NCBI GenBank assembly: GCA_001793945.1 | Contig: MGIW01000006.1 | Coordinates: 1,584-65,583, forward strand | DNA: 64,000 nucleotides | Source: Candidatus Wolfebacteria bacterium RIFOXYD12_FULL_48_21 | GTDB taxonomy: Bacteria; Patescibacteriota; Minisyncoccia; UBA6257; UBA9933 | Direction of reading: 5' to 3' | Shown here: positions 1 to 15,852 of the stretch, in pieces | Position numbering within the stretch: the stretch's first letter is position 1 | How the letters are laid out: each line of letters opens with the position of its first letter | Notes under the pieces: generated by a model | What the model was told of the DNA's origin: nothing | The model's database searches: none | What the model saw: only the letters and a program-made list of their open reading frames with translations | Position numbers and translations under genes: made by a program

Positions 1-30
1 GATGTGAGGTAAGGAAAAGAGAGGTGCGGG
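1..30. repeat. GA-rich low-complexity repeat unit ending in GAGGTGCGGG; near-identical 30-bp copy at 211-240
   Basis: direct reading: gatgtgaggtaaggaaaagagaggtgcggg vs gatgtgagataaggaaaagagaggtgcggg. Confidence 0.8.
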
Positions 31-31
31 G

Positions 32-190
32 ATGACAAAAACGCGTTGTCATCCCGAGTGCAGTGAAGCGAAGCGGAGCGAAATCGACCGCGTGCCGCCA
101 TAGCTTTAGCGGTGGAGCAGGGATCTGCATATTACAGACTCCTTCCGCCAGCCGGCGGACAGGCTTAAGCTCGGAATGACAATACGGGGG
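32..190. repeat. Palindromic GTCATTCC...GGAATGAC modular element (module A gtcatcccgagtgcaNcgaagcgRagcggag; module B cagattccttccgccagccggcggacaggcttaNNctcggaatgacaat)
   Basis: inverted termini gtcatcc/ggaatgac, internal palindrome ccgccagccggcgg; same modules recur at >15 loci in window. Confidence 0.8.
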
Positions 191-240
191 ATGAGAGATA
201 TGAGATATGAGATGTGAGATAAGGAAAAGAGAGGTGCGGG
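191..240. repeat. GA-rich repeat (gatgagagatatgagatatgagatgtgagataaggaaaagagaggtgcggg)
   Basis: direct reading; second copy of 30-bp unit flanking the palindromic element. Confidence 0.8.
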
Positions 241-324
241 TGTTTGACTTTATTTGTAAAAGTTGGTATGGAATAGGCAGGACATAACAATGTAGTTTAT
301 GGTAATACCTACGCAGAGGAGGAA

Positions 325-2028
325 GTGAACATGAAGTTAAGCGATTATGTGATGTGGTTCATCAAGGAGCAGGTTGCGGATACGGTATTCCTGATGTCGG
401 GTGGTGGCATTATGCATTTGGTCGATTCCCTTGGGAAGTCCGACCTGAAGGCAGTTTGCTGTCACCACGAACAGGCTGCGGCGATTGCCGCGGAAGGGTA
501 TGCCCGCATGAAGAATGTTCCGGGTGTCGTGTTGGTAACGACCGGCCCCGGCGGCACGAACGCTTTGACCGGTATTGCCGGCGCATGGCTCGACAGCATC
601 CCTATGCTGGTCATTGCCGGGCAGGTAAAGCGGGCCGACATTACGCCGCGGGAAGATGGCGTGCCTGTGGTGCGGCAAACAGGGTTTCAGGAGTTGAATG
701 TCATCGACATGATGAAACCGATCACCAAATATGCAGTGACGGTTGATAGACCGCAAAGTATCCGGCGTGTCTTGCAAAAGGCGGTCTACCTTGCGACGCA
801 TGGCAGACCCGGGCCGGTGTTTGTGGAAATCCCGCTCGATGCACAGGCTACGGAATTAGATCTTGCCGATTTGGAGGAGTGTGGAAGCTGGTATCCTGCA
901 ATGGATCTTCTGCCGGAGCAATCGGATGCCGTTTTGTGTTTTGCGTATAAAGTTGGACAGCTGTTGCGGAGCGCAAAGCGCCCGCTGTTGATGGCCGGCA
1001 ATGGCATCAGACTTGCGGGTGGTGTGGATGCGCTGAATCGGTTTTTGGAAAAGACATGGGTCAATACGGTTACTCCGATGTTTACCGCGGACGACTTGGT
1101 TACCCGCGATTATCCGTATTATCTTGGACGGCAAGGCATGTCGGGTAACAGGGCGGCGAACTATGCCGTGGATAACTGCGATGTGCTGCTGGTCATCGGC
1201 GAGCGGTTGCAGTTGACCCAAACATCGTACGACCACAAAAACTTCGCCACGCAGGCGACGAAGATCATGGTGGACATTGACTTGGGGGAGTTGCAGAAAA
1301 ACACCCTTTCGATCGATATGCCCATCTGGTGCGATGCAAAAACATTTCTTGAGGCGCTGTGCGCGGAGGATATTGATGTGCTGGCCCCATGGAGTGTACC
1401 TATCGAACGGATCGACCCTGCCGCGCATGAGTGCGCCAAAGGCTACCTCAATGTGTATCGGTTTTTGGAGCGGCTCAATACCTATCCGGACCCGATGCCC
1501 ATTGTAACCGCGAATGGCATGGCGAGTGTTGCTTCGCATCAGGCGCTGACTCTCAAGAACGGACAACGGTTTCTTACCAATGCCGGGCTTGGCCACATGG
1601 GTTCCGGATTGCCGATGGCGATTGGGGCTTGCATTGCAAACGGCTATAAGCCGGTGATCTGCATGGAGGGCGACGGATCCATTATGCTGAACCTGCAGGA
1701 ACTGCAGACGATCGAGCATCACAAACTGCCGATCAAGATCTTCATCTTCAACAACAACGGGTATTATTCCATTCGCAATACGCACCAGAATTATTTCAAC
1801 AATGTGTTCGCGGCCGATTCTACTTCGGGGGTTAGTTTTCCGAGTTTCTACCGGATCGCCCCCGCGTTCGGGTTGCCTATCGTGCGCATTTGCAACGACG
1901 ACGAACTCGACGTGGGACTTGATCAGGTCATGCGACATGGCGGACCTATCGTGTGCGAGTTGGCGCTCGACCCGGCCCAGCCGATGCTGGAGCGGTGGTC
2001 GGCTGGCATGTTGCGCGAAGCGCTGTAG
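325..2028 (+). CDS. ThDP-dependent enzyme, acetolactate-synthase-large-subunit-like (candidate YerE-like two-carbon branch transferase acting on an NDP-4-keto-sugar)
   Basis: 567 aa; N-terminal Pyr domain, central domain, C-terminal ThDP-binding GDGS...NN motif (ICMEGDGSIMLNLQELQT...FIFNNNGY); adjacent to E1 dehydrase gene. Confidence 0.8.
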   Translation: MNMKLSDYVMWFIKEQVADTVFLMSGGGIMHLVDSLGKSDLKAVCCHHEQAAAIAAEGYARMKNVPGVVLVTTGPGGTNALTGIAGAWLDSIPMLVIAGQVKRADITPREDGVPVVRQTGFQELNVIDMMKPITKYAVTVDRPQSIRRVLQKAVYLATHGRPGPVFVEIPLDAQATELDLADLEECGSWYPAMDLLPEQSDAVLCFAYKVGQLLRSAKRPLLMAGNGIRLAGGVDALNRFLEKTWVNTVTPMFTADDLVTRDYPYYLGRQGMSGNRAANYAVDNCDVLLVIGERLQLTQTSYDHKNFATQATKIMVDIDLGELQKNTLSIDMPIWCDAKTFLEALCAEDIDVLAPWSVPIERIDPAAHECAKGYLNVYRFLERLNTYPDPMPIVTANGMASVASHQALTLKNGQRFLTNAGLGHMGSGLPMAIGACIANGYKPVICMEGDGSIMLNLQELQTIEHHKLPIKIFIFNNNGYYSIRNTHQNYFNNVFAADSTSGVSFPSFYRIAPAFGLPIVRICNDDELDVGLDQVMRHGGPIVCELALDPAQPMLERWSAGMLREAL

Positions 2029-2052
2029 ACTACGGCGCGTGAGTTTTACCAA

Positions 2053-2080
2053 GGAGGGGCTATGGCCCCTCTTTTTTTGT
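2053..2080 (+). terminator. rho-independent terminator (aggggctatggcccct + T7)
   Basis: GC hairpin followed by ttttttt directly after stop of 325..2028. Confidence 0.6.
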
Positions 2081-2102
2081 TAGAATGTTAATTACTATAC
2101 TG

Positions 2103-2448
2103 CAGATTCCTCGACAAGCTCGGAATGACAATGCGGGAAAGGGGAGGGAGATACAAATGACAGCTTTCATTTGTCATCCCGAGCGCAACGAAGCGAAGCG
2201 GAGTGAAGTCGAGAGATCTGTAGTAAAAAGCAGATTCCTTCCGCCAGCCGGCGGACAGGCTTAGACTCGGAATGACAATGCGGGGAGGGTGTCATCCCGT
2301 GCCACGACACGGGATCCAGTGTTTTCTGCAGTGGTAACACGGGGACACCCGAGTGCTGGATACCGGCCGGATCCGTCGGCTGACGGACTGATCCGCCAGC
2401 TGGCGGACGAATGGGCCGGAATGACAATACGGGGAATGACAGAGAAAC
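2103..2448. repeat. Cluster of 3-4 palindromic GTCATTCC/GGAATGAC elements
   Basis: cagattcctcgacaagctcggaatgacaat; gtcatcccgagcgcaacgaagcgaagcggag; ccgccagccggcggacaggcttagactcggaatgacaat; ccgccagctggcggacgaatgggccggaatgacaat. Confidence 0.8.
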
Positions 2449-2471
2449 GCGGGAGTGATAAGATTATTATT

Positions 2472-2945
2472 ATGCTTACTAAAAAAGAGATCGATCAGCT
2501 TGCCGTGCTTTTAAAAAAAATAGACAACCCGCGTGGCGGATTGCCGCAGCCTGTGTTTGATGCGCTCTGTGGCGTTGTGCCGTTCGTTGCGTGTGAGCTT
2601 GCCATTATGAACAAAAAAGGGGAGCTGTTGCTTGCATGGCGGGAGGACCAATGGTGGAAGGGCTGGCATTTCCCCGGAGGGCTGATGCGCCACCGGGAAA
2701 CATTTGATGAGCGCATCAAAGCGACGGCATTGCGGGAGGTTGGTATTGATGTGAAAAAACATTCGTTTCTTTTTCCTATCAATTATTCCGAAGGAAGACG
2801 CGGACCAACGGTGTCACTTGTATTTTTGTGCCATGCAGAAACATCCACGGAGGGCAAGTTTTTTAAGACCATGCCAAAGGATATCATTCCCGAGCATCGG
2901 GAAATGTGGAGGGGGATTCGCAAGGCGATTAGGGATGAGGTGTGA
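2472..2945 (+). CDS. NUDIX-family hydrolase (start moved to internal Met; the ORF-track N-terminus 2289-2471 reads through repeat DNA)
   Basis: Nudix-box-like GGLMRHRETFDERIKATALREVGI; the N-terminal 61 aa of ORF 2289.. are translations of palindromic repeats. Confidence 0.5.
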   Translation: MLTKKEIDQLAVLLKKIDNPRGGLPQPVFDALCGVVPFVACELAIMNKKGELLLAWREDQWWKGWHFPGGLMRHRETFDERIKATALREVGIDVKKHSFLFPINYSEGRRGPTVSLVFLCHAETSTEGKFFKTMPKDIIPEHREMWRGIRKAIRDEV

Positions 2946-3010
2946 GGTGAGAGGTGAGAGGGGGGAGGTGTGAGATGAGAGGTGTGAGATGAGAGATGTG
3001 AGGAGAGAAG
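2938..3010. repeat. GA-rich repeat (gtgagaggtgagagg...gagatgagagatgtgagg)
   Basis: direct reading. Confidence 0.7.
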
Positions 3011-3027
3011 GGGGAGCATGCACTTGA

Positions 3028-3412
3028 GTGTCATCCCCGTCCGCCAGCTGGCGGAGGGATCCAGGGTGCACATGCGAAATACTGGATTCCCGTTTTCACG
3101 GGAATGACAATGCGGGAGGGATAGGGGAAATAACCGATGACTGATAACCGATGACTGATGACGGGGTGCGAGGAGTGTGTCATCCCGAGTGCAACGAAGC
3201 GGAGCGGAGTGAAGTCGAGGGATCTGTAGTTATTGGTGGTGGCAGATTCCTCGACTGTGCGGGGTACCGCGGAGTTTACCCTGAGCTTGTCGAACGGGCT
3301 CGGAATGACAATGCAAAATGCTGGATCTCGGCTTTCCTGCCCGCAGTTGCTACAGCGTTGCAGACGGGTGCAGGAATGACAGAAAGAGGGACAGGAATGA
3401 CAATACAACTCG
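3028..3412. repeat. Cluster of palindromic GTCATTCC elements interleaved with (ATAACCGATGAC)n unit at 3128-3172
   Basis: gtgtcatccccgtccgccagctggcgga; attcccgttttcacgggaatgacaat; gtcatcccgagtgcaacgaagcggagcggag; ctgcccgcagttgctacagcgttgcagacgggtgcaggaatgac (45-bp module repeated at 33320-33375). Confidence 0.8.
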
Positions 3413-3527
3413 TGGGGTGTTGCAAAGGCATTGAACCATTATAAAAAGTTGACAAAGCGGGGCAAATAGGCGATGCTATGGGCAGAAAAGCTTTGTCAAT
3501 TTCATAGATGCATTTAACTGCCTACTA

Positions 3528-4880
3528 TTGAGGAGGAGGTGTGTGATGGCACAAGATCGTGAGAGAATCATCAGTTTTGTGAAAAAGTATCTGAAAGATC
3601 GCCCGCAGCCGGGCCCGTTCATTCCCGGGCAAACGCCCGTGCCAGTTTCCGGCAAGGTTGTAAGCGGACTCGACATGCAGTACATGATCGAAGCGGTGCT
3701 GGACGGACATTGGACGGAAGGCAGGTTTGCTGAAGAATTTGAAGAGAGGCTTGCCTCATTTATTCGTGTACGATATTGTTCCATCGTCAATTCAGGCTCA
3801 TCTGCCAACTTGTTGGCGTTGACCGCATTGACATCGTTTCGTATTCCGGAGGATCGTCGGCTGAAAAAAGGCGACGAGGTCATAACCGTCGCGGCCGGGT
3901 TTCCGACGACCATCAATCCGATCATCCAAAACGGATTGCGGCCGGTGTTCGTTGATATCGAACCGGGAACATACAACGCATCGATCGATTCCATTATGGA
4001 GGCGGTGTCGAGTCGCACAAGAGCGGTATTTCTCGCTCACACGCTTGGCAACCCGTTCGAAGCGCAAACGCTCAGAACGCTGTGCGACGAGCTTGGATTG
4101 TGGCTCGTTGAAGACAATTGCGATGCGCTTGGTACGAAGCACCGCAGTGTGCATACCGGCGCATTTGGGCACTTGTCGACCTGCAGTTTTTATCCTGCCC
4201 ATCATATTACCATGGGGGAAGGGGGCGCGGTGTTGACCGATGACCCGCTGTTGCACAAAATAGTTCGATCGCTGCGCGACTGGGGGCGTGATTGTTCTTG
4301 TGCGACCGGTGCGGACAATGCCTGCGGCAAGCGGTTTACGCAACAGCATGGCGATCTGCCCTACGGGTATGACCATAAATATGTGTACTCCGAACTCGGG
4401 TACAATATGAAGGTCACCGACATGCAGGCGGCGCTTGGGCTGGCACAGCTTGAGCGGTTGCCTACATTCATTCGGCGTCGGCGCGAGAACTTTTCATTTC
4501 TGCATATGTTCTTTCGGGAACTGTATGACTCGTTCATATTGCCGGAGTGGAGCATGCATTCGCAGCCGAGCTGGTTTGGCTATCCGCTGACCATTCGGGA
4601 TACTGCCGGTTTTACGCGGGGCGAACTGTTGAAGTTTCTCGAGCAGAAAAAGATCGGCACGCGCCTGCTGTTCGCGGGCAATGTGACCAATCAACCGTAT
4701 TTCAAGAACTACGATTTCAGGTGGCGTAGCGTAGGGAAAGCGGAGGGGAACCGCATTGTGTTGCCCAACACCGACATTGTCATGGATCGCATGTTCTGGA
4801 TCGGCGTATATCCGGGCCTGAACATTGAAATGATCAACTATGTAACCAAGTCTTTTAAGGAGTTCTTGGCGAGCAGGTAA
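3528..4880 (+). CDS. rfbH: CDP-6-deoxy-D-xylo-4-hexulose-3-dehydrase-like (E1, DdhC/RfbH family; PMP/PLP-dependent DegT fold with Fe-S motif)
   Basis: 450 aa DegT-family; conserved PLP-Lys position replaced by His (SFYPAHHITMGEGG); cysteine pattern NCD...(57)...DCSCATGADNACGK = C-X57-C-X-C-X7-C typical of E1 [2Fe-2S]. Confidence 0.7.
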   Translation: MRRRCVMAQDRERIISFVKKYLKDRPQPGPFIPGQTPVPVSGKVVSGLDMQYMIEAVLDGHWTEGRFAEEFEERLASFIRVRYCSIVNSGSSANLLALTALTSFRIPEDRRLKKGDEVITVAAGFPTTINPIIQNGLRPVFVDIEPGTYNASIDSIMEAVSSRTRAVFLAHTLGNPFEAQTLRTLCDELGLWLVEDNCDALGTKHRSVHTGAFGHLSTCSFYPAHHITMGEGGAVLTDDPLLHKIVRSLRDWGRDCSCATGADNACGKRFTQQHGDLPYGYDHKYVYSELGYNMKVTDMQAALGLAQLERLPTFIRRRRENFSFLHMFFRELYDSFILPEWSMHSQPSWFGYPLTIRDTAGFTRGELLKFLEQKKIGTRLLFAGNVTNQPYFKNYDFRWRSVGKAEGNRIVLPNTDIVMDRMFWIGVYPGLNIEMINYVTKSFKEFLASR

Positions 4881-5081: not shown

Positions 5082-7250
5082 ATGGCATTTTTTATCAAAC
5101 TTAGTTTATGGGCGTTGGCATTTGTGCCGCTTATTATTACAGAGTCTGTGTTCTTTCCGTTCATCTTCGGAAAGGTTGTTATGATTCGGGTGTTTGTTGC
5201 GCTTGTATCTATGTTGTTCGCGGTGCATGTCATCGCCGATGCAGAGTTTCGAAGGGGCGTTTATGGCAGACTAAAACTCGTCGCGAAAAATCCGCTCTTT
5301 GTAACAACGACCGCGTTCGTCGCACTATCCATCGCGAGTACCATCTTTGCAGCCAATCCGTTCCGGGCATTTTTTGGCGATGTTGAACGCGGGGAGGGGT
5401 TGACCGGCCTGCTCTATTTCTACGGGTTCTTTGTGTATTCCCTGCTGGTGTTTGAGAAAAAGGATTGGATTTGGTTCTTTCGGCTCAACCTGTTTACCGG
5501 CGTCATTTTGTTTACAAAGGCACTGGTTGAAATAAGCGAAGGTGCCGTGCGGCCGGGGTCGTTTACCGGAAACCCAGCGTTTCTTGGTGGGTATTTCTTG
5601 TTCGTCATTTTTGCCGCGTTGGTTTCTTTCTATTACAGCAAAAAAGAACCTGTATGGAAGTTCTTTTCTGCGGCCATGCTTCCGCTTGGAACCATTGGGC
5701 TTTTCTTGACTCAAACGCGCAGTGCTATGGCCGGACTTGTGGTGGGTGTGTTGGCGCTTATTATCTACGGAGCCTTTCACGGGAAAGCCATTATGCTATG
5801 GAAAGGTTTTTCATTGCGCACTGTGGCGTTTGCCACACTGACTGCGATGATCGTAGTAGGAAGTCTTTTCGGCACCACCAAAGAAAGTCCGCTTTGGCAA
5901 CGCGTTCCCGGATTCAATCGAATCGCAAACTTTACATTTATGGACGCCACCGTGCAAACGCGCTTGATCTCTTTGGGCGTCAGTAAAAATGCCATTGACC
6001 CTGCCAAGAATGGCATGCAGAAGTTTTTGATCGGTTGGGGGCCGGAAAACTTCAGCATTGCGTACAATAAATACTACAACCCTGAATATTACCGATATGA
6101 ACATACATGGTTCGATCGCGCGCATAACAAATTGATGGATGTCGCCGTTATGAACGGCGCGCTTGGGCTGCTTGCCTATATGGGCATGTGGATTTCCGTC
6201 GCGTGGCTCGTGTTCCGCAGAAAGGGCTTTTCGTTCGATATGATGGCGGCGTTGTTCTTTGGCGGCGCATTCTTCTTTAACCTGTTGTTCGTATTTGATC
6301 AGGTATCCACAATCATCCCTTTGTTCGCATTCTTTGCATTTCTTTCTCATGTTTCCACAGTGGAAGATGTGGCGCCTGCGACCGGAAAGGAGAAAAAAGC
6401 GTACGCCATTGCCGGCATGCGGGAATACGCAACTTATGGCTCGTTTGGCGCGGCGGGCTTGTTCTTCACATGGGCGCTTATCTTTTGGACGATCGTCCCG
6501 TATTCACAAATGAGCACCTATCTTACGGCTATTGGAACCAAAAATGTGGCGGGGATCCTGCAAAATCCGGAAGCCATATTTGAACCATATACATTCGCAC
6601 AGCAGGATATCCGCGGACACTTCTTGAACGGATTGACCCAATATTACGGCAAGGCGCCACAGTTAAATCCGTTAATTGATGATTCCATCCGACGCATGGA
6701 AGAGCTGATTGCAAAGGAACCAACCAATCCGCGCTATTTTTTGATGATTGCCGGTGCCTATGATCGCAGAGCCCGCGCGGGTGATGGGTTGGACTATTTC
6801 AAAAAAGCGGAGGTGTATTACCACAAGGCCGGCGAACTTGCGCCGATGCGCCAAGATGTCATGTATGCGATCGCATTTAACCTTTCGTTCCAAGGGCGGA
6901 CCGATGAAGCGATAGCGGTATTGCGCACTGTGCTGACGGTCGACGATGTGTCTCCGGAAACCCATTACTTCCTCGGCGCCATACTTAGTGAAAAGGGAGG
7001 GGATTATCGGGAAGCGCTCAAGGAAATGGAGATCGCTATGAGCAGTCCTACCTATATCAATTTCAGAGATGAGCAGACGGTGAATATTTATCAACTTTTT
7101 CTGAAGCGTACATACGCCGCGCGGGATAAGGATAACTTTCTCATCGTTGCAAAACGGCTTGAAATCGTCGACCCTGAGCAGGCTGAAATGGCGCGGCAGA
7201 TGGAAGATATGGTAAGAAAAGGGCAGTGGCCCGCGATCAACTTCAACTAA
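5082..7250 (+). CDS. O-antigen ligase (Wzy_C) family membrane protein with C-terminal TPR domain
   Basis: 722 aa, ~10 TM helices, Wzy_C-like motif FLTQTRSAMAGLVVG; C-terminal ~250 aa soluble TPR-like repeats. Confidence 0.7.
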   Translation: MAFFIKLSLWALAFVPLIITESVFFPFIFGKVVMIRVFVALVSMLFAVHVIADAEFRRGVYGRLKLVAKNPLFVTTTAFVALSIASTIFAANPFRAFFGDVERGEGLTGLLYFYGFFVYSLLVFEKKDWIWFFRLNLFTGVILFTKALVEISEGAVRPGSFTGNPAFLGGYFLFVIFAALVSFYYSKKEPVWKFFSAAMLPLGTIGLFLTQTRSAMAGLVVGVLALIIYGAFHGKAIMLWKGFSLRTVAFATLTAMIVVGSLFGTTKESPLWQRVPGFNRIANFTFMDATVQTRLISLGVSKNAIDPAKNGMQKFLIGWGPENFSIAYNKYYNPEYYRYEHTWFDRAHNKLMDVAVMNGALGLLAYMGMWISVAWLVFRRKGFSFDMMAALFFGGAFFFNLLFVFDQVSTIIPLFAFFAFLSHVSTVEDVAPATGKEKKAYAIAGMREYATYGSFGAAGLFFTWALIFWTIVPYSQMSTYLTAIGTKNVAGILQNPEAIFEPYTFAQQDIRGHFLNGLTQYYGKAPQLNPLIDDSIRRMEELIAKEPTNPRYFLMIAGAYDRRARAGDGLDYFKKAEVYYHKAGELAPMRQDVMYAIAFNLSFQGRTDEAIAVLRTVLTVDDVSPETHYFLGAILSEKGGDYREALKEMEIAMSSPTYINFRDEQTVNIYQLFLKRTYAARDKDNFLIVAKRLEIVDPEQAEMARQMEDMVRKGQWPAINFN

Positions 7251-7261
7251 TGATCATACAT

Positions 7262-7290
7262 AAAAATAACGCTTAAGGCGTTATTTTTAT
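7262..7290 (+). terminator. rho-independent terminator (aaaataacgcttaaggcgttatttt)
   Basis: perfect hairpin with flanking A/T runs after stop 7250. Confidence 0.65.
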
Positions 7291-7296
7291 GTGTGG

Positions 7297-7326
7297 TTGA
7301 CACCTTTTGACACCTTTTGATACAAT
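7297..7326 (+). promoter_or_regulatory. sigma70-like promoter: TTGACA (duplicated) - 18 nt - TACAAT
   Basis: ttgacaccttttgacaccttttgatacaat upstream of 7364 gene. Confidence 0.4.
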
Positions 7327-7330
7327 GTAT

Positions 7331-7363
7331 GGGTAATTTGAAGTTTTTAATTTAGAATTTAAA
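7331..7363. repeat. AT-rich boundary element GTAATTTGAAGTTTTTAATTTAGAATTTAAA (family GTAATTTGAAATTTAGAATT)
   Basis: 5 related copies: 7331, 7717, 15803, 58013, 60686. Confidence 0.75.
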
Positions 7364-7720
7364 ATGAATGAGAATGCATATAATCTTGAGCAGCGAACGC
7401 GAGAGTTTTCTGTTCAGGTAATACGATTTCTTAAAACATTACAACAGGATACTATAAGCAGGCCGATTATTGGTCAACTAATACGGTCTGCTACCAGTGT
7501 CGGTGCAAATTATTGTGAGGCAAATGGGGCAAGCTCAAAAAAAGATTTTTGCAATAAAATATTTATTTGCAAAAAAGAGGCCAAAGAAACACATTATTGG
7601 CTTGATCTTATCGAAGAATGTTGCGGATATAAGAAGGAGCTTAATCATTTAAGAAATGAATGTGTCGAGCTGATTAGAATATTTTCTAAAATAGCCGCAA
7701 GTAGCAAAGAGGAGAGGTAA
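7364..7720 (+). CDS. four-helix-bundle protein (23S rRNA intervening-sequence protein family, TIGR02436-like)
   Basis: 118 aa; signature SATSVGANYCEANGASSKKDF...KEAKETHYWL; two paralogs at 22429 and 63131. Confidence 0.8.
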   Translation: MNENAYNLEQRTREFSVQVIRFLKTLQQDTISRPIIGQLIRSATSVGANYCEANGASSKKDFCNKIFICKKEAKETHYWLDLIEECCGYKKELNHLRNECVELIRIFSKIAASSKEER

Positions 7721-7775
7721 TTTGAAATTTAGAATTTTTAATTTATATTTTCAAATTTCGAATTTCAAATTGTAA
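7717..7775. repeat. AT-rich boundary element (ggTAAtttgaaatttagaatttttaatttatattttcaaatttcgaatttcaaattg); supplies stop codon of 7364..7720
   Basis: direct repeat of element at 7331. Confidence 0.75.
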
Positions 7776-7787
7776 ATTATCCAATGT

Positions 7788-8033
7788 ATGTCTGAAATTC
7801 TACCTAACGAAGTGTATACGACCGGGGAGGCTGAGGCTCTCTTAAAAGTGAGCAACAGCACCATGAAGCGTCTTTTGAAAAAGGGGCTCCTTCGGGCAAA
7901 CAAAGTGGGTGGGCAATACAGGATATTGGGGCATGAATTGTTGCGATTGCTTTCGCCTGAGGTAGATCAAAAGGCGACCGATCTGTATCAAAAGGTAAAG
8001 ACCATAACAAGGGAGGCGACCAAACACTGGTAA
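7788..8033 (+). CDS. helix-turn-helix DNA-binding protein (excisionase/MerR-like HTH_17 family)
   Basis: 81 aa, TGEAEALLKVSNSTMKRLLKKGLLRANKVGGQYRI matches excisionase-family HTH. Confidence 0.55.
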   Translation: MSEILPNEVYTTGEAEALLKVSNSTMKRLLKKGLLRANKVGGQYRILGHELLRLLSPEVDQKATDLYQKVKTITREATKHW

Positions 8034-8038
8034 TACAT

Positions 8039-9508
8039 ATGGATATTGACAAGCAGGCGGGGAAAAACTTTGCATGGCTCTCGACCGCACAGGTTGGCAT
8101 ACGCATTTTGGGCGCGGCGTTTTTCTTTTTTCTGTCGTACATATTGAAAGATACCGGGCTGGGCCAGTACAGCTTCGTTGCTTCGTTGGTTCCGTTTTGG
8201 TTTATTTTGGTTGATTTTGGTGCTAGTGGATATTTGTATCGCGAGTGGACTCGTGGGAAGGATGATCTAAAAACGATGGATCGTGATTTTAATATTTTGT
8301 TCACAACGCGGCTTATTATTATTTCGGCCGTGTTCATTCCGTTCGTCGCAATCAACTATGTTTCCAATCGGGATATATTGAGCTCGTTGATCCTGCTGTT
8401 CATTGCGCTGTTCATATCCCAAATGGTCGGGCTTTACGACTTGTATCTGCAATCGGCTAACCGGTTTAATGTCGTCGCCATCCGACAGGTCATAGAAAAG
8501 CTTGTGGTCACTGCTGTTGCCACCGTGGGACTGTTGTTATTGCCAAAGGTCTATGTCGTCTTTTTTGCCATTTTGGTAAGTTACATCGGCGCACTTTTGT
8601 ATTATCGGTATCGCGCCAACTTGCCATTCAGGTTTCACCTTGTATTTGATTGGGCGCGTTCCAAAGAACTGTTTCGCAAAGGAATGCCGTTTGTTTTTTT
8701 GGGCATGTTCGCCGCCATTTATGGACGCATCGACATGATCATGCTCCGGTACTTCAGTGGATTTGAAGCGGTCGGCTGGTATAGTGTTGCGTACAAGTTT
8801 TTGGATATCTCGTTTGTGTTCCCGTCGCTTTTTCTCGCCTCTATATTTCCTTTGCTTTCTTCCCTGTATGCGCGGGAAGGATCGGCCGGGCAATTTGCCA
8901 AACTGTTCGAAAAAAGTTTTCGCGTACTGTTCTCGTTTGGTGTTCTTGTGGCCGTATTTTTTATGTTTTTTGCGCCGCGCGTCATCGATCTGTTCTTTAT
9001 TGATTCGTTCGCCCCGGCGGCTCCGGCGCTGCGCATATTGATGGTAGGGCAAATGTTCGCATTTTTGAGCCTGTTGTTCAGTAATCTACTCATCGTTCAG
9101 CGAAAGGAATATAAGGGTCTGTATGTCGTCATGGCGTGCGCGTTGCTTAATATCGCGCTCAACATTTTGTTGATTCCAAAGTTTTCGCTCTATGGCGCCG
9201 CATGGGCAACGGTCGCGGCCGAGCTGGTTAATCTTGCCATATTGCAACACTATGCCGAATGGAAGACCACTCGCAATACGCTTATGACGATGTTTGCCGT
9301 GAGCGCGGGCAATTTGGCGTTGTTTGCAATATTTCACATAGCCGGCCTATTGGATGTGCTGTGGTTGGGCATTGTGGCATTGCTCTGTAACTTTGCTTTG
9401 TTGTTTGCAGTACGCTTGGTAAATAAGAATGATATACTCCTGTTTCTTGATCCGTTCGTCATGAAATTCAAAAGCCTACTGCGAAGTAATCAAGTTGATA
9501 CCGTATGA
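8039..9508 (+). CDS. polysaccharide biosynthesis protein / oligosaccharide flippase (Wzx-like, MOP superfamily)
   Basis: 489 aa, 12-14 predicted TM helices, polysacc_synt-like organisation. Confidence 0.6.
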   Translation: MDIDKQAGKNFAWLSTAQVGIRILGAAFFFFLSYILKDTGLGQYSFVASLVPFWFILVDFGASGYLYREWTRGKDDLKTMDRDFNILFTTRLIIISAVFIPFVAINYVSNRDILSSLILLFIALFISQMVGLYDLYLQSANRFNVVAIRQVIEKLVVTAVATVGLLLLPKVYVVFFAILVSYIGALLYYRYRANLPFRFHLVFDWARSKELFRKGMPFVFLGMFAAIYGRIDMIMLRYFSGFEAVGWYSVAYKFLDISFVFPSLFLASIFPLLSSLYAREGSAGQFAKLFEKSFRVLFSFGVLVAVFFMFFAPRVIDLFFIDSFAPAAPALRILMVGQMFAFLSLLFSNLLIVQRKEYKGLYVVMACALLNIALNILLIPKFSLYGAAWATVAAELVNLAILQHYAEWKTTRNTLMTMFAVSAGNLALFAIFHIAGLLDVLWLGIVALLCNFALLFAVRLVNKNDILLFLDPFVMKFKSLLRSNQVDTV

Positions 9509-10437
9509 ACAAGCCAACCCTTACTATCGGCATACCTACTTATAATCACGGTCATTTTTTAAAGGAATGCCTTGCGTGTGTTACTGGCCAGTTCGCCGGT
9601 CAGGGTATTTTTGATCGCGTAGAGATCGTGGTGTCGGACAACGGCAGTATCGACAATACGGCGGATGTTGTCCGGGAATATCAGAAGAGATTTTCAAATA
9701 TCCGATATTCCCGAAATGAAAGAAATTTGGAATTCGACCGGAATGTCGATGCCGTGCTTTCCATGGCGCGCGGGCAATTTTGCTGGACGCTGAGCAGTAA
9801 TGAATATCTGAAACCGGGGAGTATCGCATTTGTTCTTTCGGCGATCGAGCAGAATCGCGACGCGGCATTTTTATGCATATCGAATCGGCGAGAGGATATT
9901 GGGAAATCGGAGCTTCGGCGGTTCGCCAACGGAAGCCAATGGTTGAAGGATATGGGGCTGTTTGGCGGACAAATCTCCCAATGCGTATTCAATATGGAAT
10001 ATTTGCCGAGCGAGCGGGCAAAATATTACGATAATTTCTGGATCCATCTTTCGCTTTTTTGGGAAGCAGCTATTCGCCATCCGGTTGTGTTGCTGCCGTG
10101 CCTGTTTGCGCTGCCAGATGTCGTTCCGGTCTGCAAGTGGGCATGGGATCGGGGCGGTGGGCAGAATCTGATGACATATGTGTATCTTAAAAAGAATGTG
10201 GAAGGCCTTCTTCGGCTCGGTTATACTTATGAGGTAGTAGATCCTATTGTGAGCGGGTTGGCGAAAGGATTGCCTCGTATGGTCGCGTCGGCAAGATTAT
10301 GCGGATTGCCGATCGAGTGGAACAGATTTTTTCTACTGGTAAGGGAATTTTACCGCTATCCTCTGTACCTACTTGCTTCACTCGTGATTTTCGTTGTTCC
10401 CGTTATGGCGTTGCGAATGGTAAAAAAATATAGTTGA
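9505..10437 (+). CDS. glycosyltransferase family 2
   Basis: N-terminal LTIGIPTYNHGHFLKECLACV GT-A signature; start overlaps upstream stop (ATGA). Confidence 0.7.
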   Translation: MNKPTLTIGIPTYNHGHFLKECLACVTGQFAGQGIFDRVEIVVSDNGSIDNTADVVREYQKRFSNIRYSRNERNLEFDRNVDAVLSMARGQFCWTLSSNEYLKPGSIAFVLSAIEQNRDAAFLCISNRREDIGKSELRRFANGSQWLKDMGLFGGQISQCVFNMEYLPSERAKYYDNFWIHLSLFWEAAIRHPVVLLPCLFALPDVVPVCKWAWDRGGGQNLMTYVYLKKNVEGLLRLGYTYEVVDPIVSGLAKGLPRMVASARLCGLPIEWNRFFLLVREFYRYPLYLLASLVIFVVPVMALRMVKKYS

Positions 10438-10438
10438 T

Positions 10439-11488
10439 ATGCATATTGATACCAATAAAAAAATAGTCGTGTTCGATGCGGGTATTCCCCAGCTTTTAGA
10501 CAATAAGGTCTTTGACCCCGTTGCGGCAAAGGCCATAAGCCATACGATATTGCCTGCCTGTTATTTGTATCAAGAAGCGCTTAAGCGGGGCATACAGCTG
10601 GTGACGCCGGATATCTATTTTGCCTTGCCGAACAAGCCCGCGCATGCGCCGTTGATCAGTAATTTGACGAGCGAATATACGCAGCGGCTCATCGATGCGG
10701 GCGTCGAACCGACCCTTCTTGCCTGTGGCGAATCGCCGTTCATCGCTACGCGATTTTATGTCGGTTTGAAACGCATTAGTGCGGCATTTGTGCATTCGTT
10801 TGTGTTTAAGGGGATGAAGAAGCGGCTGAGTAAAAAGACGATTTATCATCAAATGTTTTTTCCACAATCATTTGAAGTGGCTTCTTTTGCGCCGGTTCCG
10901 TTCGGACAAAAAAAGTTCATCACGATGATCAGCGGCAACAAGCGTGTCGATAATTGGAAAAAGAACATCGTACTCAAGTTGCTGTACGGATTCGGGGTGA
11001 CAGAAATCTATGGAAAACGACTGTCGGTCATTGATCATTTTTCGGGCAAGGGGTTCGACTTGTATGGATTTGGATGGGATGCGAGCACGCGGCTGAGCGT
11101 CGTTGCGGCATATCGGGGGACGGTGGAAGATAAAGGTGAAACATTGGCACGATACAAGTTTGCTTTTTGTCTTGAAAACTCTATTTTCGAGGGAAATGTG
11201 ACCGAGAAGATATTTGATGCCTTATTTGCCGCCTGTGTGCCCGTGTATTTGGGCGCACCGGACATTGCCGACTATGTTCCCAAAGATGCATTCATCGACA
11301 TGCGTGATTTTGCTTCGTATGATGCGCTGGAAACATTTTTGCGAGCCATGGATGGAAAAACATACAGCGGATACATCGAGCGCATACAAGCATTTTTACG
11401 GTCGGATCAGTACAAACGCTTTTCTCAGGAACAATATGCAAACGATGTACTTTCTATTCTTGAAGAATCATTCAACAACCATGCCTAA
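10439..11488 (+). CDS. alpha-1,3-fucosyltransferase-like glycosyltransferase (GT10)
   Basis: C-terminal motif YKFAFCLENSIFEGNVTEKIFDAL matches GT10 FucT motif (..CFENS..YVTEK..). Confidence 0.6.
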   Translation: MHIDTNKKIVVFDAGIPQLLDNKVFDPVAAKAISHTILPACYLYQEALKRGIQLVTPDIYFALPNKPAHAPLISNLTSEYTQRLIDAGVEPTLLACGESPFIATRFYVGLKRISAAFVHSFVFKGMKKRLSKKTIYHQMFFPQSFEVASFAPVPFGQKKFITMISGNKRVDNWKKNIVLKLLYGFGVTEIYGKRLSVIDHFSGKGFDLYGFGWDASTRLSVVAAYRGTVEDKGETLARYKFAFCLENSIFEGNVTEKIFDALFAACVPVYLGAPDIADYVPKDAFIDMRDFASYDALETFLRAMDGKTYSGYIERIQAFLRSDQYKRFSQEQYANDVLSILEESFNNHA

Positions 11489-12413
11489 AGTAACCGTCGC
11501 CATACCTACCTATAATAGAAGGGAGCATTTGCGGGAGGCCATTAAGAGTGTACTTGCGCAGACCTTTCAGGATTTTGTCATCATCGTGTTTGATAACCAT
11601 AGCGATTATGATGTCCGTGCGTTTTTGGACGAATTTAATGATAGTCGAATATCGGCAATCGTTGCACCCGTAAACGAAGGTAACTATAATCACATCTTTA
11701 TGCATGGGTTTGATTCTGAGTATGCCATTTTATTTCATGATGACGATGTGATGCATCCCGAATTGTTGGCGCGCGAGGTTGCCGTACTTGATGCGCACAC
11801 GGAGCTGGTATGGGTCGGGACCGATCTGCAATTCGTTCGAAGCGATGCACGCATGCATGACTTTGTGCCCGTTAAGAGCGACATCATTTTTACGCACGAT
11901 GCGGCAGGCATTGTACGGCTTATCCTGCAAGGCTTTAATTTATGTTATGATTCGGTCATGTATCGGACTGTTCATCTCGATGATGCCGCTCCACTTACCA
12001 ATCAATATTCCAAATGGGGCGATCGGCCGTATCTTGTCAGTTTGTTGCATGGCGGGAAGGCGGGCATCATAAAGGAAAGGCTGGTAAACTATCGCATCCA
12101 CCCCGGGCAGGATTCGCAGGCTGCGGCGCCCGACTCCGCGCAATATGCCATCAACCTTTTGTTGTTCTATAAAAAATGTTTGCATAATTTGCAAATAGCA
12201 TCGGACAGGCGATTGTTTTATAGGCATGTCGTCGACAGTCTTATCCCCGCGACGATCGTTTCTTCGCGTACCATCGCGGAGTTCAAGCAATTTCTTTTAC
12301 CGTATCGTCGTGTTGGCCTTGTGCGATTGCGTTACATTACCCCGAAAGGAGTATTTCGATCGTTGCGTGCCTTAGTGCGAACTATACAGAAAAAATTACC
12401 ATGGAAAAATTGA
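11481..12413 (+). CDS. glycosyltransferase family 2 (start at in-frame Met 11481 overlapping upstream stop by 8 nt; ORF track start 11214 overlaps previous gene)
   Basis: MPKVTVAIPTYNRREHLREAIKSVLAQTFQDFVIIVFDN GT2 signature. Confidence 0.7.
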   Translation: MPKVTVAIPTYNRREHLREAIKSVLAQTFQDFVIIVFDNHSDYDVRAFLDEFNDSRISAIVAPVNEGNYNHIFMHGFDSEYAILFHDDDVMHPELLAREVAVLDAHTELVWVGTDLQFVRSDARMHDFVPVKSDIIFTHDAAGIVRLILQGFNLCYDSVMYRTVHLDDAAPLTNQYSKWGDRPYLVSLLHGGKAGIIKERLVNYRIHPGQDSQAAAPDSAQYAINLLLFYKKCLHNLQIASDRRLFYRHVVDSLIPATIVSSRTIAEFKQFLLPYRRVGLVRLRYITPKGVFRSLRALVRTIQKKLPWKN

Positions 12414-13384
12414 CCATTTTGACCCGCCGTGTTTCCCTTGCATATGCATTGCTAAAAAAGGCAAGGAATATGTTGCGGTTTTTGCGCGCATTCGCAAAAG
12501 GCGGCATTATCGATTTTGATTATATTCGGTATGGCGGACATGTTGCCGTTACTCGAAGTTTGGTCCATGGGTTACGGGAGCTCGGCACGAGTTTTAATTA
12601 TAACCCTGTTTCGGTATCTGCCATCGGCGATGTGGTCGTCGTGTTAAGCGGTGTCGGTGCGGTACGGCAGGCCATCGAACTAAAAAAACAGGGAAAGATA
12701 AAGAAGCTGTTCGTGGGGCCCAATGTCGTTGAGATGTCTACCGAGTATGACAATCTTCTTGCGGCGCCTGAGATCGACGCCTGTCTTGTTCCATCCGACA
12801 TGACCGTCGCGATCTATGAGCGGCTTACGCCCGCGCTTCGTGGCCGATGTGTGTCGTGGTATGCGGGGGTCGGCGAGAAATATTGGAGTCCACTTGAGCA
12901 TGTATCGATCGCAAAAAATGTCGCGGTCTATTGGAAAAATGCTCCCAAGCCGTTTTGCATGGAAGTGGAGCGGTTGTTGACCGTGCATGGATACACCCCT
13001 TTGCGGATTGTGTATGGGCGATATAATAAAAAAGAGTTCAGGCGCAAGTTGCGCATGAGCGCCTTTTCCGTTTTTTTAAGCATTACGGAAACACAGGGAA
13101 TAGCCCTTGCCGAATCGTGGGCGGTAAATGTGCCGACGCTTGTGTGGGACCCGCAGATCGAGCATTATTATATACGCGGGTTGCAGACCACGGCGGCGCC
13201 GTATCTGACCGATGCAACGGGACTGCGGTGGAAGGAGTTGGGCGAGTTTGAAGCCGCCATAAAAAACTTTTCCGCAGACGGTTTTCAACCGCGAGCGTGG
13301 GTCATGGAGCATATGACCGATCGGGTATCAGCGGAACAACTCGTGCAATTGTGCAAAGCCACACCTGATACAAAAACATTATGA
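12401..13384 (+). CDS. glycosyltransferase, GT-B fold (GT1/GT4-like)
   Basis: C-terminal FSVFLSITETQGIALAESWAVNVPTLV resembles GT4 E-x7-E region; weak. Confidence 0.4.
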   Translation: MEKLTILTRRVSLAYALLKKARNMLRFLRAFAKGGIIDFDYIRYGGHVAVTRSLVHGLRELGTSFNYNPVSVSAIGDVVVVLSGVGAVRQAIELKKQGKIKKLFVGPNVVEMSTEYDNLLAAPEIDACLVPSDMTVAIYERLTPALRGRCVSWYAGVGEKYWSPLEHVSIAKNVAVYWKNAPKPFCMEVERLLTVHGYTPLRIVYGRYNKKEFRRKLRMSAFSVFLSITETQGIALAESWAVNVPTLVWDPQIEHYYIRGLQTTAAPYLTDATGLRWKELGEFEAAIKNFSADGFQPRAWVMEHMTDRVSAEQLVQLCKATPDTKTL

Positions 13385-14139
13385 TTAAACATCTCATTAA
13401 AAAAGCAATTCCCAAAAAACTGTTACCCAAGGTAAAGGCGATCAATTTTATTTTGCGCAATAAGGTGACTTACGCGCAGGATTGTTTGTATACGACCGTC
13501 AATGCCGATTTTATGAACGATGCGCGGTTTGCAAACGCGTACGCGAAAGGGCGCGCGCTCATGCTCGAGTCGTGGGGCGATTATCAATTCCATTGGCGTG
13601 CATATGTTGCGTGCTGGGCTGCTCAAAAGGCGAGCGGTATTGAAGGCGACTTTGTTGAGTGCGGCGTGAATACGGGCATGCTTGATAGGATGATCATCGA
13701 TTATGTTGATTTTGCGCACTTGCCTAAAAAGTTCTACCTTATGGATACATTTCAAGGCATGGACGAGGCGTACAGCACCGAGGCAGAAATGAAACGATCC
13801 CATACCATGGGATATGTCGATGTGTACGAGCAGGTGAAGAAAACATTCAAGGAGTTTCCGAATGTCGAATTGGTCAAGGGGCCTATTCCTGACACCTTGC
13901 CGCTGGTCCCGTCTAAGGCAATCGCGTATTTGTCGATCGACATGAATTGCGTCGCGCCCGAAGTCGCCGCACTGGAATATTTTTGGGACAGGATCGTTTC
14001 GGGCGGTGTTGTTTTGTTCGATGACTACGGCTTCCCGGGGCATGAACAACAAAAGACTGCCCATGATGCATTTGCCGCGAAAAAAGGAGTATCTATTTTG
14101 CCGCTTCCTACGGGGCAGGGGCTCATTATTAAACCTTGA
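13381..14139 (+). CDS. TylF/MycF-family sugar O-methyltransferase (class I SAM-dependent)
   Basis: 252 aa; GDFVECGVNTGM and VVLFDDYGFPGHEQQKTAHDAF motifs typical of macrocin-O-methyltransferase family. Confidence 0.65.
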   Translation: MIKHLIKKAIPKKLLPKVKAINFILRNKVTYAQDCLYTTVNADFMNDARFANAYAKGRALMLESWGDYQFHWRAYVACWAAQKASGIEGDFVECGVNTGMLDRMIIDYVDFAHLPKKFYLMDTFQGMDEAYSTEAEMKRSHTMGYVDVYEQVKKTFKEFPNVELVKGPIPDTLPLVPSKAIAYLSIDMNCVAPEVAALEYFWDRIVSGGVVLFDDYGFPGHEQQKTAHDAFAAKKGVSILPLPTGQGLIIKP

Positions 14140-14142
14140 TTC

Positions 14143-15066
14143 ATGCCATTGGTTTCCATCATCATTCCCACTTATAACAGTGCACGATTTCTCTCGCGAA
14201 CCATCGAGAGCGTGTTGGCGCAGACCTATCGGAACTTTGAATTGATCATCGTCGATGATGTTTCTACCGATGATACCGTTTCGATCATTCGCTCGTTCGC
14301 GGAAAAGGATTCGCGCATACGCTCTATTGTTTCGGATACCAATTCCGGCGGCCCTGCCCGGCCGACTAATAAAGGACTTGTCGTTGCGAAAGGGGACTTT
14401 GTCGCATTTCTGGATCATGACGATGAATGGTTGCCCGAAAAGCTGCAAGAGCAGGTTTCATTTTTACAGTCTGCATCAAAGGATGTCGGCGCCGTAGTTT
14501 GCGATGTCGATCTGTTGACGCCGGATGGTGCGCGCCGTCCCATGCATGTATTTCCCGATTATCCGACCAAAGAGAGTTTTCTTACCGCAGTCTTATGCGC
14601 GAAATTCTTTTTTATGTTTTCTGACCTGTGTATGCGCAGGGAAACACTGGATGCCGTAGGCTTGCTTGATGAACGCTATGTGCTGGGCGCGGATCATGAC
14701 TATTATGTTCGCATTGCGCAGGTTTGTTTGATCGGCGTGGTGCATAAGCCGTTGATCCGTTATGCCGTGCATCCGCAAAATCTTTCGCGCGGGTCGCTTT
14801 CTTTAACCAATGCCATAGCCGATCTGGAGCTGTCGCTTGATACGCATGCGGAGCTGTTTGCTCGATACCCTCGGTGTTATCGGCGCAGAGTGGTACAATT
14901 AGGTAGTGCGTTAATAGCCGTCGGAAATATGAAGCAGGCACGCAGCGCATTGCGTACTGCATTTTTCCTGAATCCGCTGGCGCTTGATGTTCCATTTTAT
15001 TTGCTCCTTTCTTTTTTGGGTAAGCGAATACATCGCGCATTGAAGACAATAAAAAATACGGTTTGA
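14143..15066 (+). CDS. glycosyltransferase family 2
   Basis: VSIIIPTYNSARFLSRTIESVLAQTYRNFELIIVDDVSTDDT. Confidence 0.75.
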   Translation: MPLVSIIIPTYNSARFLSRTIESVLAQTYRNFELIIVDDVSTDDTVSIIRSFAEKDSRIRSIVSDTNSGGPARPTNKGLVVAKGDFVAFLDHDDEWLPEKLQEQVSFLQSASKDVGAVVCDVDLLTPDGARRPMHVFPDYPTKESFLTAVLCAKFFFMFSDLCMRRETLDAVGLLDERYVLGADHDYYVRIAQVCLIGVVHKPLIRYAVHPQNLSRGSLSLTNAIADLELSLDTHAELFARYPRCYRRRVVQLGSALIAVGNMKQARSALRTAFFLNPLALDVPFYLLLSFLGKRIHRALKTIKNTV

Positions 15067-15070
15067 AACC

Positions 15071-15808: not shown

Positions 15809-15852
15809 TTTGAAATTTAGAATTTTAAATTTTAAATTTATAATTTTATATA
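15803..15852. repeat. AT-rich boundary element (gggtaatttgaaatttagaattttaaattttaaatttataattttatat)
   Basis: same family as 7331/7717. Confidence 0.75.

Follow-up and report, generated by a model that had tools for sequence, protein, structure and literature searches.

Within the first 4,880 nucleotides of a 64,000-nucleotide stretch of contig MGIW01000006.1 (positions 1,584 to 65,583; the whole stretch is termed the window here), Candidatus Wolfebacteria bacterium RIFOXYD12_FULL_48_21 encodes a thiamine diphosphate (ThDP)-dependent enzyme predicted to be a YerE-like carboligase and a member of the E1/DdhC/RfbH family of sugar 3-dehydrases. Both genes lie on the same strand, separated by 1.5 kb that hold a NUDIX gene and repeat-filled spacers. 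They are also present in the sister metagenome-assembled genome (MAG) RIFOXYD1_FULL_48_65; both MAGs originate from Rifle groundwater and belong to the candidate phyla radiation (CPR)/Patescibacteria, and the longest contig with the two genes comprises 893 kb. An earlier note, written from the letters of the window, had proposed that the pair belongs to a locus for a branched, yersiniose-like 3,6-dideoxyhexose. Sequence comparison and gene context make it probable that these genes take part in the synthesis of a rare 3,6-dideoxy sugar with a carbon branch, destined for a surface glycan. A sugar-precursor cassette of roughly 15.5 kb has its downstream end at positions 1..4880, and glycan-assembly genes occupy the next 19 kb or so (5082..24196). 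The cassette end comprises:

1..330, no strand: repeat-module spacer before the ThDP gene, ribosome-binding site AGGAGG at 317-322
331..2028, plus strand: predicted ThDP-dependent YerE-like carboligase, 565 amino acids, OGM94303.1; three TPP Pfam domains, JanthE as best PDB match
2029..2471, no strand: repeat-filled spacer with repeat families D2-D7, overlapping the N-terminal extension of the longest NUDIX reading frame
2472..2945, plus strand: NUDIX-fold protein with a core of about 157 amino acids; Pfam NUDIX 1.4e-06
2946..3545, no strand: repeat-filled spacer including a 14-nucleotide tandem array (2923-3030) and a reading frame of 97 codons (3151..3444)
3546..4880, plus strand: E1/DdhC/RfbH, predicted CDP-6-deoxy-L-threo-D-glycero-4-hexulose 3-dehydrase, 444 amino acids, OGM94307.1; NF011936, 3bcx, His219, Cys192/250/252/260

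The E1-type and ThDP genes

The open reading frames (ORFs) named in the earlier note exist at 325..2028 (plus strand, GTG start) and 3528..4880 (plus strand, TTG start). The true starts are likely ATG 331, eight nucleotides after AGGAGG, and ATG 3546, and public gene calls agree on products of 565 and 444 amino acids. Long antisense ORFs such as 856..2052 (minus strand, 398 amino acids) were dismissed as shadows of the plus-strand genes, all homology being found on the plus strand.

By family the 444-amino acid protein is an E1/DdhC/RfbH-type 3-dehydrase, with the corresponding predicted activity. It reaches 646.7 bits (E 1.5e-194) with the NCBIfam RfbH equivalog NF011936, for which the cut-off is 423, and 290.7 bits (2.3e-86) with Pfam DegT (PF01041), while E1 from Yersinia pseudotuberculosis (PDB 3bcx) is matched with 513 bits (6e-153) at 53.4% identity over 436 columns. 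The regular expression C.{57}C.C.{7}C has a single match in the protein, at C192, C250, C252 and C260, and the HMMER alignment to 3bcx places these residues on the cluster cysteines C193, C251, C253 and C261 of the Yersinia enzyme, exactly the array that had been read from the DNA. In the same alignment His219, the first histidine of SFYPAHHITMGEGG (residues 214-227), coincides with Yersinia His220. The sequence of PDB 3bb8, which we take to be the H220K variant of Yersinia E1, has lysine in place of this histidine, and His219 therefore occupies the position of the pyridoxal 5'-phosphate (PLP) lysine, in agreement with the replacement claimed earlier. When the histidine and the four cysteine positions were compared across 42 E1-family members from related loci in Genome Taxonomy Database (GTDB) genomes, the four cysteines were kept in 36; the [2Fe-2S] cluster is therefore evidently in use. 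The exchange of the PLP lysine for histidine and the C-X57-C-X-C-X7-C motif are the same as in Yersinia E1 (AscC/DdhC/RfbH). The gene differs from its enterobacterial counterpart in residing in a CPR bacterium, in lacking a nearby E3 (AscD/DdhD) gene and in being the last of the cassette, with about 12.6 kb between it and the end of a ddhB-like gene upstream.

ColD entries in the PDB (2gms, 3gr9) likewise carry histidine for lysine, but ColD matches the protein with 178 bits compared with 513 bits for E1, and aminotransferases score lower. Together with the histidine and the four cysteine positions, these scores rule out an ordinary DegT aminotransferase or ColD. A related proposal would be that an E1 homologue without an E3 partner does not carry out reductive 3-deoxygenation and instead converts a 4-keto sugar in the manner of ColD or of an aminotransferase. 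In fact, Pfam scans of the 64-kb window and of 15.5 kb upstream disclosed no Fer2, FAD_binding_6 or NAD_binding_1 proteins, a CX4CX2CX20-40C motif was not found in stop-free segments of at least 200 amino acids from the fetched related loci and the window, and an E3/DdhD-type reductase was not encountered near E1-type genes in any fetched locus (L009-L013 and L017-L096; L- and P-numbers are our labels for fetched loci and proteins). We nevertheless consider this proposal very improbable, given the bit scores and the retention of the four [2Fe-2S] cysteines here and in most of the family. Furthermore, SpnQ, an E1 homologue, works with general ferredoxin or flavodoxin reductases. A dedicated E3 is a feature of the classical system, not of the E1 protein family. 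Because no E3 gene is encoded nearby, we assume by analogy that electrons for E1 are provided by a general ferredoxin/flavodoxin system here, too.

In the ThDP protein, the Pfam domains TPP_enzyme_N, M and C are all present (1e-30 to 1e-34), and so are the conserved cofactor motifs, HHEQ with the catalytic glutamate at 45-48 and GDG-X25-NN at 447-476. Acetolactate synthase models lead its NCBIfam list by E-value, and one source labels a cluster member 'acetolactate synthase'. Still, a role as ilvB/ilvG, the acetolactate synthase of branched-chain amino acid synthesis, is practically out of the question. The protein remains below every NCBIfam cut-off for acetohydroxyacid synthases (AHAS), the best score being 350.5 bits versus 738 and that for TIGR00118 342 versus 538. 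Neither ilvN nor ilvC nor ilvD appeared in Pfam scans of the window and of the upstream genes, and in all relatives the ThDP gene is located inside a sugar cluster. Cut-offs and gene context thus rule out a true AHAS.

The best PDB match, 8rph (381 bits, about 40% identity in the trimmed alignment), is JanthE, a characterised YerE-like carboligase that accepts ketones (PMC12188165). Plant and E. coli acetohydroxyacid synthases reach about 224 bits (best 224.7). Second in rank after JanthE is 5ahk, which we take to be PpYerE, with 254 bits and about 32% identity. The ThDP protein is accordingly predicted to belong to the YerE-like sugar-branching family rather than to the acetolactate synthases, as had been suggested, and this placement is also made because the gene signature matches that of the erwiniose, caryophyllose and gastriose clusters, which combine ddh genes, an aldolase, a YerE-like enzyme and a reductase (PMC9306805). 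Its predicted role is to attach an acyl group as a branch at C4 of a CDP-4-keto-3,6-dideoxyhexose. YerE is not the only sugar-pathway counterpart, as had been supposed: ErwE, MMAR_2332, MyGE and JanthE have been characterised as well, and most of these YerE-like enzymes use longer keto-acid donors (PMC9306805, PMC12247030). The window enzyme has the three-domain AHAS-like fold, the catalytic glutamate and the ThDP motif in common with YpYerE, ErwE, MMAR_2332, MyGE, JanthE and PpYerE, where the likeness to YerE, ErwE, MMAR_2332 and MyGE is one of published description, not of sequence. It carries the canonical GDG, whereas JanthE has CDG. The yer, erw and mmar clusters resemble the present locus in that the ThDP gene is grouped with ddhA-, ddhB- and E1-type genes (PMC9306805).

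The upstream cassette and related loci

The genes preceding the window were read on L014, a metagenomic contig carrying the same locus. There, the first cassette gene starts about 15.5 kb ahead of the ThDP gene, and the genes in front of it (Fic, SpoU, pilin-like) are unrelated. Up to the ThDP gene the order is:

Gene 1, upstream: NTP-transferase resembling glucose-1-phosphate cytidylyltransferase, best model TIGR02623
Gene 2, upstream: short-chain dehydrogenase/reductase (SDR) resembling CDP-glucose 4,6-dehydratase, best model TIGR02622; GATGLVG, SSDK and YDVSK motifs
Gene 3, about 11 kb upstream of the ThDP gene: NeuB-Cupin_2 fusion, 509 amino acids
Gene 4: SemiSWEET-like protein
Gene 5: radical-SAM/SPASM enzyme
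Gene 6: B12-binding radical-SAM enzyme
Gene 7: radical-SAM enzyme
Gene 8: GT2
Gene 9: atypical SDR, 308-315 amino acids
Gene 10: radical-SAM/SPASM enzyme, the fourth radical-SAM enzyme of the cassette
Gene 11: 109-amino acid protein, no family match
Gene 12: HAD hydrolase directly upstream of the ThDP gene, which is followed by the NUDIX and E1 genes

The E1-type dehydrase, the YerE-like ThDP enzyme and two proteins whose best matches are enzymes of the CDP-glucose pathway are thus encoded in one co-directional cassette. Gene product 1 matches TIGR02623 over its full length with 278.7 bits (cut-off 300.25) and gene product 2 matches TIGR02622 with 212.1 bits (cut-off 278.45), compared with 161 bits for the dTDP-type model. 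In agreement with the earlier note, Pfam scans of the window detected no cytidylyltransferase, 4,6-dehydratase or E3; the surmise of the note that all three may lie upstream holds for genes resembling the first two and fails for E3, which was found neither in the 15.5 kb upstream nor in the window or the related loci.

The NeuB-cupin protein contains the NeuB Pfam domain and is far more similar to 3g8r, an uncharacterised SpsE structure ('spore coat polysaccharide biosynthesis protein E', 360 bits), than to true NeuB (82 bits). It stays far under the NCBIfam cut-offs for NeuB and PseI (142 versus 399.65 and 124 versus 340.25). In contrast to the nonulosonic-acid synthases NeuB, PseI and SpsE, its C-terminal part is a cupin, with weak likeness to D-lyxose/D-mannose isomerases, instead of the typical NeuB C-terminal domain, and the cluster lacks the CMP-transferase partner gene of those systems: Pfam scans of the cluster genes revealed no CMP-ulosonic-acid synthetase (CTP_transf_3). 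The atypical SDR yielded no NCBIfam or PDB match and no recognisable YxxxK. SDRs of about 300 amino acids follow the ThDP gene in many related loci, and the atypical SDR is possibly the reductase of the branch carbonyl, in a YerF-like role.

One of the radical-SAM/SPASM proteins (339 amino acids, L014 10001-11020) is 62-67% identical across CPR, Omnitrophica, Ignavibacteria, Desantisbacteria and Bathyarchaeia, and this conservation suggests that tailoring genes travel horizontally with the cassette. In a strain variant (L005 1669-4551) the spacer between the HAD and ThDP genes holds extra genes, among them one for a 314-amino acid protein grouping with the Hydrolase_3 family and one for a Zeta_toxin/AAA_33 kinase-like protein, an arrangement resembling the order Hydrolase_3 - AAA_33 - ThDP of L013. 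The composition of the cassette thus varies among members of the population.

A scan of GTDB with one genome per species retrieved 80 loci with a ThDP homologue (39-67% identity) from diverse bacterial phyla and several archaea, which were annotated by ORF calling, BLAST and clustering; the counts that follow are approximate lower bounds. An E1-type gene with the histidine and the four cysteines in the aligned columns lies within 10 kb of the ThDP homologue in 33 of the 80 loci, and in 21 of the 41 loci with full flanks. DdhA-like genes occur equally often (33/80). A keto-acid synthase gene of any type is found in half of the loci (40/80), namely NeuB-cupin in 18, HpcH/HpaI aldolase in 18 and HMGL-like in 5, and is at most three genes away from the ThDP gene in 34. 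HAD-superfamily genes are present in 21 of the 80 loci, in 19 of them no more than two genes away from the ThDP gene. In 36 of the 80 loci there is a gene for a GT2 of about 317 amino acids, accompanied by a GtrA-like protein in 13. Metagenomes contain many further ThDP homologues with 60-76% identity, which mostly bear Patescibacteria names, one being from a Pacearchaeota member.

In a neighbour-joining, distance-based tree of the ThDP enzymes, calculated without support values, the type of donor module tracks ThDP phylogeny. The clade that includes the window enzyme (L009, L011, L013, L017, L018 and L019; 58-76% identity) is linked to NeuB-cupin in all six loci as well as in its own organism, the neighbouring group is likewise of the NeuB/radical-SAM/NUDIX type, and Campylobacter and relatives have HpcH aldolases. 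L009, L011 and L013 have a common set consisting of NeuB with cupin, HAD or Hydrolase_3, ThDP enzyme, NUDIX or small protein and E1-type DegT protein, and also share SDRs, radical-SAM enzymes and methyltransferases. The NeuB-cupin gene usually adjoins the ThDP gene in close relatives (L011, L013, L017). In P0073 (787 amino acids, from a 4.9-kb metagenome contig) a ThDP enzyme (residues 1-560) is fused to a C-terminal HAD domain (563-757) that is homologous (E 3e-18) to the separate HAD protein encoded upstream of the ThDP gene of the window.

Other members of the ThDP family occur in different surroundings. Two paralogous ThDP genes are present in L035, L040, L042, L084 and L091. In 13 loci (including L029, L032, L043, L044, L061, L065, L069, L076, L093 and L094) the ThDP gene is found together with a gene for a 3-dehydroquinate-synthase-like protein (sugar-phosphate cyclase), and many of these loci also carry a short-chain dehydrogenase; they may constitute a further donor or acceptor variant of the family.

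Proposed pathway and origin of the branch

The following sequence of reactions is proposed. Judging from the best-match families of the first two gene products, CDP-glucose would be formed and dehydrated to CDP-4-keto-6-deoxyglucose. E1, the family membership of which is clear, would then employ pyridoxamine 5'-phosphate and the [2Fe-2S] cluster to remove the 3-hydroxyl group, resulting in CDP-4-keto-3,6-dideoxyglucose. Because of its homology to JanthE and the family-wide linkage to ddhA, ddhB and E1 genes, the YerE-like enzyme would decarboxylate a 2-keto acid and join the resulting acyl anion to C4, which would generate a tertiary-alcohol branch. The branch carbonyl would be reduced, possibly by the atypical SDR, and radical-SAM enzymes, methyltransferases and an SDR could tailor the product. 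Finally, glycosyltransferases would transfer the sugar, and the Wzx/Wzy machinery would install it in the surface glycan.

For the donor, we tentatively favour a 3-deoxy-2-ulosonic acid over pyruvate, a choice about which considerable doubt remains. The cupin could isomerise a sugar phosphate, NeuB condense it with phosphoenolpyruvate (PEP) and the HAD protein dephosphorylate the product. A donor other than pyruvate is proposed because NeuB-cupin is universal in the close clade, its NeuB domain is nearer to 3g8r than to true NeuB while its cupin has a weak likeness to sugar isomerases, HAD adjoins or is fused to the ThDP enzyme and a CMP-transferase is not encoded in the cluster. The proposal also draws on analogy, since ErwE does not accept pyruvate but takes what an aldolase encoded alongside it produces (PMC9306805), and a NeuB-made donor would parallel the aldolase-made donors of ErwE and MMAR_2332. 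It would entail a long polyhydroxylated branch at C4, similar to caryophyllose rather than to yersiniose with its two-carbon branch.

The two-carbon branch put forward in the earlier note is thus not favoured, the close relatives being linked to NeuB-cupin and HAD. It would follow if the ThDP enzyme used pyruvate and if NeuB-cupin and HAD made an unrelated sugar for the same glycan. YerE does use pyruvate and JanthE accepts it among other donors (PMC12247030), and in the present cassette the E1 gene is almost a neighbour of the ThDP gene, NeuB-cupin being encoded about 11 kb upstream of the latter. On the other hand, the NeuB-cupin gene is present in the locus of every close relative, usually right beside the ThDP gene, HAD is part of the same polypeptide in P0073, the cluster genes include no CMP-ulosonate synthetase that could activate a separate NeuB product, and the tested enzyme with a co-encoded keto-acid synthase, ErwE, does not take pyruvate (PMC9306805). 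A pyruvate-derived branch is therefore unlikely.

Alternatively, the ThDP enzyme could be a plain decarboxylase or small-molecule carboligase in a NeuB-HAD-ThDP side pathway, while the E1 route would lead via an SDR to an unbranched 3,6-dideoxyhexose. AHAS-like ThDP enzymes include simple decarboxylases, and a model for 5-guanidino-2-oxopentanoate decarboxylase is matched by the window protein. In the NeuB-linked loci L019, L032, L038, L067 and L070 an E1 gene is not within reach, and MyGE was inactive on ketones in vitro (PMC12247030). However, many E1-less loci are short contigs, the co-occurrence with E1, DdhA and DdhB (33/80) is far above that of an unrelated pathway, and JanthE, the best characterised relative, is a ketone-accepting carboligase. 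We regard a role outside sugar branching as quite unlikely.

Several points weigh against formation of a branched dideoxy sugar via a NeuB-made donor. Donor, acceptor and product are all deduced from sequence. The cytidylyltransferase and dehydratase matches are both under the curated NCBIfam cut-offs, and an E3 that would supply E1 with electrons is absent nearby. The margin of 5ahk over AHAS is small, and with a score of 254 bits for the presumed PpYerE the term 'YerE-like' is without a sharp boundary in terms of sequence clades. About half of the homologue loci are without E1 within 10 kb, many of them on short contigs, and the ORF caller was greedy, the NeuB-cupin gene of L014 having been lost to an antisense ORF. 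Moreover, 3-deoxy-2-ulosonic acids are mostly cyclic hemiketals and as such poor ThDP substrates, a limitation that is eased by a short chain or by an enzyme that binds the open form. Finally, a catalogue of more than 200 YerE-like clusters obtained in silico (Krug et al. 2024) may, as far as it is reported in PMC12247030, already include clusters of the NeuB type.

The proposed pathway follows the logic of the 'unifying scheme' for erwiniose, caryophyllose and gastriose, in which a 4-hydroxy-2-keto acid synthase is followed by ThDP-dependent addition to CDP-4-keto-3,6-dideoxyglucose and by a reductase (PMC9306805). The donor synthase would here be a PEP-dependent member of the NeuB family, assisted by a phosphatase, where a pyruvate aldolase acts in the scheme, and the candidate reductase is the atypical SDR that lacks a recognisable YxxxK. 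Unlike the characterised clusters, in which the keto acid is supplied by aldolases of the BphI type (ErwI) or the HpcH/citrate-lyase type, the present one would rely on NeuB-cupin and HAD, and its ThDP gene is accompanied by four radical-SAM enzymes. E1 and YerE-like enzymes as such are already known. What appears to set the locus apart from characterised examples is the PEP-dependent NeuB-cupin/HAD module, the company of radical-SAM and NUDIX proteins, the lack of E3 and the CPR host. In the literature searched, no paper linked NeuB-type synthases with ThDP-dependent sugar branching or RfbH with Patescibacteria. More speculatively, and with doubt prevailing, a horizontally shared, E3-independent cassette composed of DdhA, DdhB, E1, the YerE-like ThDP enzyme, NeuB-cupin, HAD, NUDIX and several radical-SAM proteins might make an undescribed high-carbon branched sugar through a YerE-like enzyme fed by NeuB and phosphatase, with tailoring by radical-SAM enzymes, for the surfaces of CPR bacteria and of some DPANN and other archaea.

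Neighbouring genes and wider significance

The NUDIX gene between the ThDP and E1 genes recurs as a conserved component of clusters of the NeuB/radical-SAM type. Genes for homologues of 153-199 amino acids directly adjoin the ThDP gene in L009, L017 and L091; in L051, L066, L081 and L083 they occupy other places in the cluster. The best NCBIfam match, a weak one, is GDP-mannose mannosyl hydrolase. The canonical Nudix-box pattern has no match in the product of 2472..2945; by eye, the motif region reads GLMRHRETFDERIKATALREVGI and seems to retain only part of the REUxEE acidic signature, so that the protein may not be a standard pyrophosphohydrolase. Alternative starts are given by public gene calls (2331 or 2436) and by the longest ORF (2289), the N-terminus of which, GMTIRGMTEKRG, is derived from repeats that inflate the ORF.

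Such repeats fill all three spacers. That before the ThDP gene (1..330) contains copies of TGTCATCCCGAG, CGGAATGACAAT and the palindrome TCCGCCAGCNGGCGGA as well as a 30-nucleotide direct repeat (1-30 and 211-240). Across the spacers (1-330, 2029-2471 and 2946-3545) the module TGTCATCCCGAGYGCA...GAAGCGGAG is present in three copies, with one more elsewhere in the window (35727-35741), CGGAATGACAATRCGGGG in six copies and the palindrome in five. The publicly annotated 97-amino acid gene at 3151..3444 was rejected as translated repeat modules (CHPECNEAERSEVEGS, GMTERGTGMT) without a family match.

Downstream of E1, the genes for glycan assembly are arranged as follows:

5082..7250, plus strand: Wzy_C (O-antigen polymerase/ligase-like) membrane protein with C-terminal TPR region; Pfam
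8039..9508, plus strand: Wzx-type (MOP) flippase; Pfam, NCBIfam
9505..10437, plus strand: GT2
10439..11488, plus strand: GT10-like
11481..12413, plus strand: GT2
12401..13384, plus strand: protein without assigned family
13381..14139, plus strand: TylF-type O-methyltransferase
14143..15066, plus strand: GT2
15071..15808, plus strand: methyltransferase
15801..16718, plus strand: GT11-like
16735..17454, minus strand: GT2, convergent
17447..18565, minus strand: GT4, convergent
18659..20278, minus strand: second Wzx-type flippase, convergent
22856..24196, plus strand: polyprenyl-phosphate sugar-phosphate transferase (Bac_transf), likely the initiating enzyme of the glycan

In total, this region provides two MOP flippases, five GT2, one GT4, one GT10-like and one GT11-like glycosyltransferase and two methyltransferases. 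Between the Wzy-like and the first Wzx gene, AT-rich repeats, both direct and inverted (7255-7295, 7332-7361 and 7716-7771), flank genes for a 23S-rRNA-intervening-sequence protein (7364..7720) and an HTH_17 protein (7788..8033); the HTH_17 gene is not among the gene calls of the NCBI MAG (L004), and 7255-8033 could be a small inserted element. The G+C content is 0.52-0.54 for positions 1-4000 and mostly 0.44-0.49 for 6000-28000, the glycosyltransferase region, a step that would fit a mosaic or horizontal origin of the precursor cassette. Farther downstream (56115-59958, minus strand), two large adjacent genes encode members of GH130, a mannoside phosphorylase family (631 and 618 amino acids), both with N-terminal extensions of about 300 residues that lack a Pfam match.

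Carbon-branched 3,6-dideoxyhexoses such as yersiniose, erwiniose and caryophyllose are rare antigenic sugars that, to our knowledge, have so far been described in mycobacteria and a small number of Gram-negative bacteria. The occurrence of cassette relatives in many phyla including archaea suggests a distribution of branched dideoxy sugars that is much broader than has been assumed. Given that E3 is consistently absent, how E1 is reduced in these organisms becomes a question of its own. If the proposed donor pathway is true, the NeuB-cupin/HAD module would extend the scheme of 'aldolase plus ThDP enzyme' to PEP-dependent synthases, and the enzymes concerned would represent new ketone-accepting carboligases for tertiary alcohol synthesis. 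Wolfebacteria, with genomes below 1 Mb, yet devote several per cent of them to this glycan, and branched dideoxy sugars may be of importance at the cell surface of episymbiotic CPR bacteria.

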